This document shows, piece by piece, positions 2,082-21,900 of a stretch of DNA of 64,000 nucleotides. This DNA is from Saccostrea echinata (taxonomy: Eukaryota), in NCBI RefSeq assembly GCF_033153115.1, contig NW_026889779.1, positions 29,760,001-29,824,000 on the forward strand. Direction: 5' to 3'. The position numbers were made by a program, and so were the translations under genes. The notes under the pieces were generated by a model that saw only the letters and a program-made list of their open reading frames with translations, did no database searches and was not told the DNA's origin. Position 1 is the first letter of the stretch. Each line of letters starts with the position of its first letter.

Positions 2082-4864
2082 CTATTTAGTATCCACCTTT
2101 ATTCCAGTAATGTGTTCTTCACCCATAGCAGATGTCACTGTCAGCTAGGTAAACAAAAAATAAAATGAGCATCTTAACTTAAAATCAAAATGACTGGATG
2201 TGTTTGGTTGTCATACAGAATGTAAATCACAGCAAGGATGAATTCAATGGAAACCTTGTCTTGAGATTCATAGAAAAAGAATTTAACATATTTGTAGATC
2301 TTTATTTGTTACATATACATCCCCTTTTGCAATAATGAAGTAATTGACTGGAAGTGATGATGTATGTTATATATACTTACAAGAAGGGATTCTTGGTTCT
2401 CCCAGCGTTTTTTAATTTCGTCACCTAATTCATCTTTTGGTAGATTCATATCGTCTTTTAAGGAGCCATTTTCCTCCATAAGGGATGGGGTACCATCATC
2501 ACCAATGTCTATAAGCTTAAAATAAACAACAACAAACAAACCTTAAGTATTACATTCCCTAATGATAAAACATCAAGGTTTAACTTGAAGAGTCTGGTGC
2601 CCTGTTCACATGGAGAGTTTAATTCGAATAAAACGCAAGTTACTGCGAATTAAATTTGATCCGCGTTCACACGGAGAATTTAATGCGAATTAGTTTAATT
2701 CGAATTAGTTTACTGCGCATTAAATTACTTCGCATTAGCTCCGTGTGAATGCTAAGCGAAGCTAATTCGAATTAAATTCTGACGCATGTGTAAGGGCAGA
2801 ATTAAGTCACATGCCACATGTCGCTGGTCAAATATAGGTATTTGTGCTATTTTTGAGTGGAAAACAAAGGAAAACTATGTTAATCACTTAAAACTGTACA
2901 GACACTATGAAATATTATGTCAAATGTATATCTGCTCTGCAAAGTGTGTCGTGATTTGCAAATGACGTCATAATAGCCCTACTGAATAGCCTTATAGTAG
3001 AAATAAAATTTTAATTCGCATTAGTTTACTTCGCATTAGCTGTCGTGTGAACGCAATTTAATTCGCATAATTTTACTTCGCATTAATTTACTGCGAATTA
3101 AACTCTCCGTGTGAACAGGGCATGGGTTGTTACATTACTCCAAAACTTGAATATGTAAAATAAATAGATATTTAATGTTCCGTGTGGGGCAGGATTTTTT
3201 ATTTAATATTTTCACGAGTGTGAAGCACAAGTGAAAATATTTTTTAAAAATCCTGTCTCAAAAGTGAAATAAATTCCAAATCCAACTAAAAAATATTGAA
3301 TTTTCTGTTTATTTTATTTTAGTTTTATAGTCTGTCAAGTCATAGTTGAGCGGTTGAGATGTCACGGCTTAACAGTTGTGAGATTAAAAACATTGTAACA
3401 TGGATTTCAGCAAAATATTTGGGAAGAAATTGGCAGTTTTTGTATCTATCAAAACAGTTTAGTTACTATCTTATGACATGACAGAAATTATTTTTACTTA
3501 CTTTGATATCCTTTTACAGTATGAGAGAATATCACTTTGGTATCCTTTCACACTGTGAGAGATTATCACTTTTATTCAATAAATTAATCACAGTATTTCA
3601 CTGTTGAAAATGTAATGATAGCTTTTATTTACCTGGTAGTCTTGGCGTTTAACAAGAGGGACATTCATGTTGTGAGTAGAAGGGCATATGTCTTCATATT
3701 TCTTCTGAGTGAAAATGTCAATTCCCACCAAGTGAACCTGTATAATAAATTGTTACTCTATAACATCTTAAGCTCATGCTGAAAACCTTATTTGTGAAGT
3801 TAACCGATTAGATTATAAAAAGTAACAAACAATAGAGCTAACAACAATAACGTAACAAAATAGTTGATATAGAGGGATACAGATACATATCATCAATTTG
3901 CCGATTTTGCTTTACAACCTAGCTGCTTAATGCCTTGGTTCAACTTCACATACATGAAAAGCAAGATAGATTGTTCCATCCTTAAAATGAAATTGTCCTA
4001 TGGATCCTGTTTAACAATAGTTCTGCGTGTTTTCAATATAGAAAAATAAACAGATAACTCTTCTCTACATATTTACTACAAATATGCAGAGAGTTCCCAA
4101 TGTCAACTCGGCGTGTAAATTCAAAGTGAAAAAAAAATTCGAGAAAATGAGTTGAATTTTTGTCTTTATAATAATGTATTTTTTTAGGGTAGAAGACATA
4201 AATAAACTCAGAAAGGTTTTTTCAAGATTAATGAGGGAGTTTTTTGGTACACACAGGGGTTGAAATATACAGTAGCCCGAGGTCTGGGGCTAATCATTTA
4301 CCAGAAAAAAAATTCTCGTTAGTTTATTTTTGTTTTCTATGTAATCTGGTTTCTTTCGACTGAGAACTAGTTTAATTTGTTTTTGTCACCAAAAGCATTT
4401 GAAACTTTAATTTGTTATGTTTCATTTTGCATAAAAATTGTTGGGCTAGTTAGTTTGAGGTTTGGGCTGGTAATTTTTTACTGATCAGTAGTCCCTGGAC
4501 TAGTGAGATTTACACGAAAATTTCACCCTCTGTGCACTTTTGTATTCAGAGCAGATTCGTTCTGATTTGCTACTACATGAGACGTATTCAGACGGTATTC
4601 TAACTGTGGTGAGGGCTTGTCCAGAGACACAGTTAGATTATTCTAACTAATGATTTATCAGCCAAAAACTGGATGCAGAATTGCTTCTTGTACCTTGGCA
4701 TGGCCGTGCTTTCCAGTCTTAGATGTGGACATTTCTACGATTTTGCATGGTCGATCCTTAATGACAACATGTCCATTTTTGCGAAGAGAAGAACACTGAG
4801 CGGGATAAGTCTTGGATGCTCCAGAATCTGCTCCACCAAAATCATCATCTGCGTGATCTCCCAT
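2082..4864 (-). CDS. eIF5A: Eukaryotic translation initiation factor 5A (hypusine-containing), spliced, 157 aa (159 aa with the alternative last exon 1159-1179)
   Basis: Coding exons 4864-4694 (MGDH...[12 protein letters not shown], hypusine motif), 3737-3633 ([27 protein letters not shown]...DYQ), 2515-2381 (LIDIGDDG...ESLL) and 2144-2082 ([20 protein letters not shown]). All junctions are GT-AG, phase 0 and in frame. Confidence 0.95.
2598..3122. mobile_element. PIF/Harbinger-like MITE
   Basis: Long TIRs TGCCCTGTTCACA.GGAGAGTTTAATTCG / CGAATTAAACTCTCCGTGTGAACAGGGCA; 3-bp TSD TGG. Confidence 0.7.
3162..3620 (+). mobile_element. Hairpin-headed interspersed repeat (Crypton-like non-autonomous element), relative of 16601-17160
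   Basis: Shares long stretches with 16601-17160 (gtcatagttgagcggttgaga..., tcacagtatttcactg..gaaaatgtaat); internal palindrome; no TSD seen. Class is inferred. Confidence 0.5.
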
Positions 4865-18967: not shown

Positions 18968-21900
18968 ATGTCCGACTCCGAAGACCAACCGGAGAAAGAG
19001 GCCGAGGTTGAAAAGAAGATCATAGGTACCGACCTTTTTGTTTTAAACTCACAAAAAAGCCATTTTAGCCGATGAGTTTTTCGTATTATGTAGGTCACCT
19101 CGTGTAGCGTGATTTCCGAAATTTTATTCAAAACTAGCTGAAAAAGTACAAGGGGAATAAAAACAAAAATATAATCGTGAAATATATAATATAATGTAAT
19201 CATTATACCGGGTAGATGATCGTAAAAGCAAGAAACTAAAAAGAAGATCCCTTTCTTTCCCAGAACACTGGTTTGTCCTACACGTGGTTTGACTTCCTTT
19301 ATAGTTTATTGATTATTTGTTTGTGTCCATTTTCAGCCAACAAAATCACTGGAACCGTAAAATGGTTTAACGTTAAAAGCGGATATGGCTTCATTAACAG
19401 GTAGTTGATCTACAAATACACTTTGCTATTAATTTTATACACGTGCATTCTATGCAAGCAAGAACTTGCAGTCACGCCTCGTTGACTCTGTGATATGTAC
19501 TGCAGTTATATTTATATAACTCTAATCTTTGGTTTTTCTAATTACAATTGATATGAATTGCAGTTATATTTGTATAACTCTAATCTTTGGTTTTTCTAAT
19601 TACAATTGATATGAGTCAAAATACTTTGAATTAATTTAATTAAAGAAAAAACTAATTGTAAGAAAATTTGCATTCTTCCAATGGCAAATAAAAATGTAAT
19701 TACACATTGAGACATTCATCTCATTCTAGAAAGTTTAACTTTAAAAGCTTTTAAAGTTGTTTCTGTTGTATGCATATATAGTCTTATTTTAAGTATAATT
19801 TACTTACTTCTGTTCTATCTCTGTTCTTACAGGGATGATACAAAGGAAGATGTGTTTGTCCATCAGGTTTGTATTTTACATAAGTTTGAACAGGTTATCA
19901 AGAGTAATACATCATAAAAAGTAAGGTAATTTGATTGTAAACGAAATTTTGTTTGTACTGGCATGGCAATGATTTATCCACCACAGAGAGCTTCAAAATT
20001 AAGATGATTAAAATAAAACCTTGCGATTGTTGTGATTGCAGACTGCCATCATCAAAAATAATCCCAAGAAGTACCTAAGGAGTGTTGGAGATGGAGAGGC
20101 TGTTGAATTTGATGTTGTGGAAGGCGAAAAGGTAGGTAGAAATTTGTGAGATAAAAAAAATTACTATGAGAAATCATATGAAATATCCATCTTTTAGATT
20201 GTCATTGTGGGATTTGTTGTAGGGCAATGAGGCTGCCAATGTAACAGGACCTGATGGTACCCATGTACAAGGCAGTAAATATGCCGCTGATCGTCGTCGT
20301 TTTAGACGTTACTTCCCACGTCGACGTGGAGGTGGACCAGGCCGTCCAAGACATGAGGTGAGGGGAGATTTGTATAACTAAGGGCGAAACGATTACACGT
20401 GTAAACGGCGACGTTTCGATTAAATGCTCTAAACATTTACGAATTGTGTAAACGTTTACACGAAGGTCATTATCAATGTCTATCAGAAGTAAAGATAAAT
20501 ACAAACAAGTTGTTTAATTTCATATTTACCAAAGAAGATAATTGTTTTCTGTTTAAATCGATACGGGAAACATGTTATTAAACTAAACTATCTAAAACCC
20601 AATTGCGTCTAACATGTTTGATTCCGATTTCCGAGTATCGAATACTAACGATTTATTATGATTTTATTTTTCCAAGTATAAAACTTGACTTACGTTGATT
20701 AAATAAATATAATACGTTTTCCCCAGTCTTTGAAAAGTGTTTCAACACAGTCAGCAAATCGCGGTATACTTAATTCAGGATTAAAAGAGCCATCTTTGCA
20801 AGTTTAATTTGACAATGCTTTTTCTACGTTCGGTATGTACGTCCGGTATGTAGCCAAACAAACTATTAATGCAGTGTAAAAAGTGAATGAGTTTTATGCG
20901 CTTCATATTCTTTCGTCATAAAAACCAACAAATAAATAGTTATAACAACTCATACTTACATTATAGTGAAAGAATAGAGTATTAATTAGTGTTTAATGAG
21001 TAAGTAACCATAAAAATTCAACACAAAATATTCTGCCGTTTAAACGGTGACGTTTCTTTTACTGCTGTTCGTTTAAACGTTTACAAAATTCAGTAAACGT
21101 TTCACCCTTATGTATAACCTTTTTATTGTTGTAAATTTAATACAAAGTGAAAAATATGGTTAAGTATAGAATGATGCACTTCTAAATCAGTGACATACTC
21201 ACATGTAGTGTTGTATATTTCCTCAGGGTGATGAGGGAGAGGAAGGAGAAGAAGAAGATGACCAGGGAAGGAGACCTCCTCCTCGTCGTCCCTACTACAG
21301 AGGGGGGAGAGGCTTCTACAGGGGTTTCTACCAGGGTAGTGGTGGTGGTGGCGGTGGTCCTCGTAGACCACCTCGCTATCAAAACGCCATGATGGATGGT
21401 CCAGGTCGTCAGCCTCAGTTTAGGAGACCATACTGGAGGAGGGGATACAGAAGATACTATGGCCAGGTTGTCAAATTTTACACGTCTTAAGTTCATAATT
21501 CCTCTCAATGCAGAGAAATTTATGTTGTATGAATGATGAAGAAATGGTTTATTGCAAACATAAATGAACAAGGAAAATGCTTTTACATTAACTAACTTAA
21601 ATTTACATCCACTGAAGATTTTCTATTTTATTATGCCCCCCTTCAAAGAAGGGAGGGCATATTGCTTTGCTGCTGTTGGTCGGTAGGTCCACCAACAGTT
21701 TTGTTCATTTTCTTTGCAGAGGTTGCACGTACTGAAATGAAATTTGGTATACAGATTTATCATAAGAATATCTAGGTTAACTTTTGTTTTGGGTATGATC
21801 GAGCAATTTTTGACAGAGTTACGCCCCTTGGACTAAACAAAATTCCAATAAATTGCAGTTTCCGTTCATTTTCTTCGCAGAGGTTGCACATACTGAAATG

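Follow-up and report, generated by a model that had tools for sequence, protein, structure and literature searches.

The genes for the translation factor eIF5A and for a Y-box protein were found to lie head to head in a 64,000-nucleotide stretch of the genome of the oyster Saccostrea echinata, referred to here as the window (contig NW_026889779.1, positions 29760001-29824000 of the genome piece C30, which accounts for 36.2 Mb of a 923-Mb genome). On balance, this arrangement is best read as a neighbour pair that was probably inherited from the bilaterian ancestor, in which each gene likely relies on its own compact promoter and whose survival would mostly reflect slow rearrangement of a shared ancestral chromosome.

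The eIF5A and Y-box genes

In the window sequence both genes are complete, with eIF5A on the minus strand and the Y-box gene on the plus strand as divergent neighbours, and their start codons (ATG at 4864 and 18968, respectively) are separated by 14,103 bases. Measured from 6207, the assumed upstream end of eIF5A exon 1, the distance to the Y-box ATG is 12,761 bases, in agreement with the divergent order and the start separation of ~12.7 kb reported in a first-pass annotation made from the letters alone. Among the reading frames of the window and its flanks, those between the two genes were repeat-derived, and no further coding exon turned up there; none of the four interval frames submitted to Pfam matched, and an Rfam search of window positions 1-26000 gave no match. 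Genome-wide searches returned one match each for eIF5A and the Y-box gene. Contigs of four public runs were placed on the window as evidence of splicing, and splices were found in two of these runs (X1 and X3, from two studies and presumed to be of RNA type), whose contigs are spliced at three eIF5A junctions and five Y-box junctions. eIF5A and the Y-box gene are therefore confirmed as intact, spliced, single-match genes in a divergent layout. Their parts are as follows.

442-1179, minus strand: eIF5A exon 6, 3' untranslated region; a loose end of X1 and X3 contigs at 2080 matches 1148-1177; acceptor present; putative end set by AATAAA at 801 or 442
2082-2144, minus strand: eIF5A exon 5, terminating in the stop codon; from translation and spliced contigs
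2381-2515, minus strand: eIF5A exon 4; from translation and spliced contigs
3633-3737, minus strand: eIF5A exon 3; from translation and spliced contigs
4694-4874, minus strand: eIF5A exon 2, with the ATG at 4864; carries the hypusine loop
6158-6207, minus strand: eIF5A exon 1, non-coding; donor GT at 6157; an X1 contig runs from exon 2 into 6158-6172; putative 5' end, with a TCT-like start near 6198
18968-24352, plus strand: Y-box gene, 274 amino acids; eight coding exons (18968-19025, 19337-19400, 19833-19866, 20042-20131, 20223-20357, 21227-21466, 22704-22814 and 24260-24352)

The eIF5A product of 157 amino acids is encoded by four coding exons (4864-4694, 3737-3633, 2515-2381 and 2144-2082), and all introns are GT-AG. 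PF21485 (E 6e-39) and PF01287 (E 4e-23) were matched on the public oyster model P0121, the last 157 residues of which equal the spliced product of the window, so that both the N-terminal and the C-terminal OB domains of IF5A were detected; a PDB search with eIF5A matched the human and yeast proteins. The first coding exon is 100% identical to the Saccostrea protein P0003, and the hypusine loop sits in an intact reading frame, its lysine being the predicted modification site. The intron at 1180-2081 starts directly after the stop codon, which leaves the last exon fully untranslated. A frame of 17 codons, which stops before the donor, begins at an ATG within exon 1 or immediately 5' of it (window 6158-6216, minus strand). 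For this reason the N-terminal extension of 22 residues in P0003 and P0121, both flagged as low quality, was rejected; these models pass the exon-1 stop by frame correction and gain the 22 residues in this way, and the feature is likely to be either an artefact of annotation or a short upstream open reading frame.

All introns of the Y-box gene are likewise GT-AG, and the loose end of one contig matches exon 7. Exon 2 gave a match to PF00313 (cold-shock domain) above the cut-off, the protein having a single cold-shock domain of YB type, and all eight PDB matches of exon 4 were to YB-1 or YBX2 (E 2e-13 to 3e-12). As read from the translation, the C-terminal tail alternates basic/aromatic and acidic blocks, without zinc knuckles. 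A separate search for cold-shock domains returned six genome matches, all on other contigs, and the intron-split Y-box gene was not among them. The single oyster genes appear to represent all of the vertebrate paralogs, not YBX2 or EIF5A specifically. Intronless Y-box proteins of animal type, 62-88% identical to a clam protein, are encoded on contigs of 398-1706 bases in four bacterial assemblies (L101-L104) and are likely to be contamination with animal complementary DNA.

The interval and the blocks beside each gene

According to the first-pass annotation only repeats could be recognised between the two genes. This holds for much of the interval, in which at least 7122 of the 12,538 non-N bases (57%) have copies elsewhere; the value is a lower bound, as the genome-wide search covered three stretches, with 40 candidates scored in the two repeat-rich ones. 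It does not hold next to the genes, where 6208-6826 and 17540-18960 were essentially single-copy in genome-wide searches. The following features were placed.

6208-6826, minus strand: eIF5A upstream single-copy block; CCAAT at 6326 and a CGCATGCG palindrome at 6210-6217
6827-9110, no strand: dispersed repeats, belonging to at least three families, with copies on many contigs (79-95% alike); 62 non-self matches, with 40 of 3136 candidates scored
10647-10781, no strand: N stretch of 135 bases, a mask or an assembly gap
11652-13041, no strand: non-autonomous DNA transposon of 1.39 kb with 29-nucleotide terminal inverted repeats, flanked by TA; at least 39 other loci, 79-95% alike
13434-17538, no strand: mostly high-copy repeats, with palindromic elements resembling miniature inverted-repeat transposable elements at 13900-14040 and 16606-16766
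17540-18967, plus strand: Y-box upstream single-copy block and leader; CCAAT at 18802 and 18832, and GCCATCTT at 18877

In run X10, which holds the DNA of a relative, 16 of the 17 bins in 6448-17735 exceed a depth of 1000, compared with 116-134 for contigs over promoter and exon stretches of the genes and one intron piece. Transposons appear to insert freely between eIF5A and the Y-box gene, and an interval that accepts them in this way argues that neither a fixed spacing nor a shared promoter is needed.

The two single-copy blocks differ in their motifs. A motif scan, in which a match is not proof of function, placed one CCAAT, the CGCATGCG palindrome (which we take to be NRF1-like) and the TCT-like start on the eIF5A side, and two CCAAT together with GCCATCTT (presumably YY1-like) on the Y-box side; no 9-mer is common to the two upstream regions when both orientations are compared. 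Contigs of relatives' DNA match both the eIF5A side (5911-6268 in X10 and 5768-6270 in X14) and the Y-box side (18724-19124 in X10 and 18860-19124 in X14), with 15-51 letter differences per 265-500 bases among the matches listed. It is likely that each gene has a compact putative promoter of its own.

The N stretch raises the question of whether the two genes were brought together by assembly, through a join of pieces that are not neighbours. No contig among those listed spans or bridges 10647-10781, and both flanks are repeat-rich. Such an artefact is nevertheless hardly credible, as the window lies inside a 36.2-Mb piece, none of the 20 flanking stretches of 10 kb contains N, 135 does not look like a round scaffolding gap size, and a false join would hardly be expected to recreate, by coincidence, a pair of genes that are neighbours in vertebrates. 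In addition, the Nematostella relatives of the P5B ATPase gene on the left and of the Y-box gene on the right are 16 gene numbers apart (PMC10946136).

Age of the pair and its persistence

The gene list of a human bacterial artificial chromosome from 17p13.1 includes CLDN7, SLC2A4, YBX2, EIF5A and GPS2 (PMC1459182), and in fugu both ybx2 and eif5a are on the slc2a4 scaffold (scaffold 63), in a slightly different order (PMC3832493), which bears out the earlier statement that human YBX2 adjoins EIF5A. Linkage of the pair has thus been observed in two lineages, the mollusc (in the window) and the vertebrates. Human YBX2 and EIF5A are presumably also divergent and ~12 kb apart.

Mapping in cnidarians had been proposed as a check, and the one cnidarian looked up did not reveal a neighbour pair. 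In Nematostella, YBOX1-like-1 is NV2.14141 and IF5A-like-1 is NV2.14234, that is, 93 numbers apart with 89 listed genes between them and with different neighbours (PMC10946136). The older NVE numbers are consecutive alongside the NV2 numbers, so that the numbering likely follows position and the two genes are likely to be linked, not adjacent. By chance, two genes would lie no more than 93 numbers apart with a probability of ~0.008 over the whole genome and of ~0.11 within a single chromosome. The same Nematostella stretch holds AT133-like-1, P53-like-1 and ELP5-like-1 (PMC10946136).

In the vertebrate block SLC2A4-YBX2-EIF5A-GPS2-NEURL4, the Y-box gene is beside eIF5A as in the oyster, presumably in the same orientation and at a similar spacing of ~12 kb. 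GPS2 and NEURL4 flank the vertebrate pair, whereas the families that flank it in human are scattered in the oyster genome, with GPS2 on C25, DVL, p53 and RPL22 on C54, and a multi-repeat Neuralized gene, apparently NEURL4-like, on C30 at a distance of 6.9 Mb from the pair; separate oyster contigs may be parts of one chromosome. A genome search for the ELP5 family gave no match and was uninformative. The wider block is shuffled in the oyster, and only the eIF5A/Y-box pair remains. The human relatives of AT133-like-1, P53-like-1 and ELP5-like-1 are, we assume, in the paralogous regions of 1p, 3q, 12p and 17p.

Searches for the pair in further species returned nothing that could be scored. The eIF5A accessions (10 clusters) and the Y-box accessions or names (8 of 10 clusters) have no species in common; a metagenome scan kept 80 of 395 loci, all of 1-5 kb, read as intronless transcripts and none with eIF5A; and seven Y-box loci in a prokaryote genome collection have no animal genomic context, with none in a viral collection. 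Four 'cnidarian-like' Y-box proteins considered as a cnidarian test were rejected, as the two named ones are tunicate proteins. Among the rows listed in the supplementary table of Robert 2022 there are three Y-box/Lin28 orthogroup rows, all vertebrate, and no eIF5A row, and no match to the pair was found in the supplementary material consulted from Grau-Bové 2017 (12 files, two large ones excepted), Grau-Bové 2024, Brasó-Vives 2022 and Schultz 2026 (two files). A literature search gave no report of the pair outside vertebrates; published pair lists were outside its reach, so the pair may be listed already.

Descent and chance were compared in a rough calculation, the inputs of which were all assumed (oyster chromosomes with 3000-4000 genes each, between a quarter and a half of the human head-to-head pairs open to testing, and 30-100 pairs that are truly ancestral). 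The expected number of chance head-to-head pairs was 0.2-0.45 if genes mix freely and as many as 13 if local order is strongly retained, and the posterior for descent was 0.69-0.998 over 24 settings. Because this calculation favours descent over chance, the eIF5A/Y-box pair is likely to be of bilaterian age. To this extent the earlier suggestion of a pair kept since the bilaterian ancestor stands, and it fits the linkage in Nematostella, the pair being shown in two bilaterian lineages.

The oyster and vertebrate lines could also have joined the two genes independently, through inversions within a commonly inherited chromosome. This is compatible with flanking genes that differ (a P5B ATPase gene and an unnamed membrane-protein gene in the oyster, GPS2 and SLC2A4 in human), with Nematostella genes that are linked yet 93 numbers apart (PMC10946136), and with incomplete mixing, which under the loosest assumptions permits up to 13 chance pairs per genome comparison. 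Independent joining is nevertheless improbable, as the 0.2-0.45 chance pairs under free mixing stand against the conserved ancestral microsyntenic pairs (CAMPs), of which Irimia et al. 2012 described 595 groups, with 448-492 kept in amphioxus and the limpet Lottia in all orientations (PMC3514665).

If the pair is indeed inherited, the two genes would already have shared an ancestral chromosome when cnidarians and bilaterians diverged, and their adjacency would have arisen in the bilaterian stem or else have been broken in the sea anemone line. Oysters, and among the vertebrate copies YBX2-EIF5A, would then have retained it as few rearrangement breaks happened to fall between the genes; breaks so close to two essential promoters may also carry a slight cost.

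Several points weigh against this reading. Among bilaterians, adjacency has been shown in the oyster genome and in vertebrates, with the human orientation presumed, and no listed contig bridges the N stretch. Because of the repeat depth, a conserved block of single-copy DNA within the interval could escape notice, and 17539-18512 comprises 974 single-copy bases in which such a block may lie. Among human conserved pairs, 54.8% are head-to-head compared with 26.7% of controls, and they are more co-expressed (PMC3514665); this enrichment and co-expression give a real prior for selection on regulation holding the pair together. The mean spacing of conserved head-to-head pairs is 29-41 kb (PMC3514665), which exceeds 12.7 kb, and the spacing found here therefore does not exclude co-regulation.

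A rival reading is that the ancestral pair is actively held together, by shared or interleaved cis-regulatory DNA or by a chromatin domain common to both genes, so that two translation regulators would be co-ordinated, for instance in growing cells or oocytes. Both genes act on the translation of mRNA, the human spacing is presumably similar (~12 kb), the single-copy block of 1.4 kb upstream of the Y-box gene could house an enhancer, and among ancient pairs the head-to-head class is enriched and the best conserved, its members being more strongly co-expressed and having better-conserved intergenic DNA (PMC3514665). The evidence from the oyster and from other animals nonetheless makes active holding possible but somewhat unlikely. 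The spacing is far beyond the <1 kb that is the signature of bidirectional promoters (PMC3514665), the two promoter-like blocks have differing motif sets with no common 9-mer, and the interval between them is filled with repeats. Mouse Ybx2 is germline-specific, whereas Ybx1 is ubiquitous in embryos (PMC13441540), and the Nematostella genes are not adjacent (PMC10946136). The suggestion in the first-pass annotation that the genes are linked through shared regulatory DNA is accordingly not supported. eIF5A is a general translation factor, and YBX1 and EIF5A2 have each lost the partner gene.

Neighbouring genes and the class of the pair

To the left of the window, a P5B ATPase gene (L005:2369 to L010:3994, plus strand) is tail-to-tail with eIF5A, and its best PDB matches are to the polyamine transporter ATP13A2 (E 7e-20). 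The hypusination of eIF5A requires spermidine; Y-box proteins pack stored maternal mRNA, and eIF5A sits on dormant egg ribosomes. A scheme could be drawn from this in which a co-regulated translation-storage pair with a shared enhancer, present throughout the bilaterians, was joined in the oyster by a P5B ATPase that supplies spermidine for eIF5A activation, which we regard as quite improbable. AT133-like-1 and YBOX1-like-1 are separated by 16 gene numbers in Nematostella (PMC10946136). The position of the P5B ATPase gene by eIF5A probably reflects shared chromosome ancestry, not a functional cluster.

Further genes were noted on either side. A proline-rich LIM gene is found to the left (L003:2397-4805, plus strand), in which a LIM domain was detected and which appears to be of LPP/zyxin type, and a mannose-6-phosphate receptor gene, identified by Pfam, is found to the right (L016:428-4507, minus strand); human M6PR and LPP presumably belong to regions that are paralogous with 17p13. 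A gene of several exons (window ~29640-34380, minus strand), which converges on the Y-box gene, encodes a hydrophobic membrane protein rich in cysteine; three of its exon frames had no Pfam match, no usable Atlas match was obtained, and the protein may be TMEM272-like. Three tandem, nearly single-exon alpha-1,3-fucosyltransferase (GT10) frames occupy 54125-58713 on the minus strand, the first of which seems to lose frame near the C-terminus. Degraded pol remnants of a long terminal repeat retrotransposon (protease, RNase H) are found at L013:7295 to L014:1478 (plus strand), and low-complexity tandem arrays at 37745-38504, 48232-48771, 51465-52146 and 53766-54223 of the window give long false reading frames.

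Three known classes of gene neighbourhood were compared with the oyster pair. Genomic regulatory blocks combine a developmental regulator with a bystander whose long introns are rich in enhancers; eIF5A and the Y-box gene do not encode developmental transcription factors or signals, and the longest introns of the two genes are ~1.2-1.4 kb. Pairs with a bidirectional promoter, such as HSPD1-HSPE1, are head-to-head housekeeping genes, as is the oyster pair, but their starts are <1 kb apart on one promoter (PMC3514665), whereas those of the oyster pair are ~12.7 kb apart, with separate motif sets and with transposons between them. The closest likeness is to the head-to-head class of CAMPs, defined as non-paralogous genes with no more than four intervening genes. 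In this class, as in the oyster, two unrelated divergent genes with none between them are common to a mollusc and vertebrates, and no gene was found between eIF5A and the Y-box gene. Housekeeping CAMPs such as HNRNPA2B1-CBX3 and ZMYM3-NONO are comparable to the oyster pair, and neither eIF5A nor Y-box is named in the main text of that study (PMC3514665). CAMPs are defined by linkage that persists in at least four major animal lineages, whereas the oyster pair is known from two, and Nematostella does not add another. The pair probably works like a CAMP, being ordinary in kind and one of ~600 such pairs, and is neither a bidirectional promoter nor a genomic regulatory block.

The pair would gain importance only with a shared enhancer, through which the packaging of mRNA and the function of ribosomes would come under a single control element of ancient origin. 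Should the pair be ancestral, as the slow-rearrangement reading has it, its value as a marker is useful but routine, with ~600 such pairs described (PMC3514665): it would provide one more marker for bilaterian gene order and would show that the YBX2-EIF5A copy kept the old arrangement after genome doubling.

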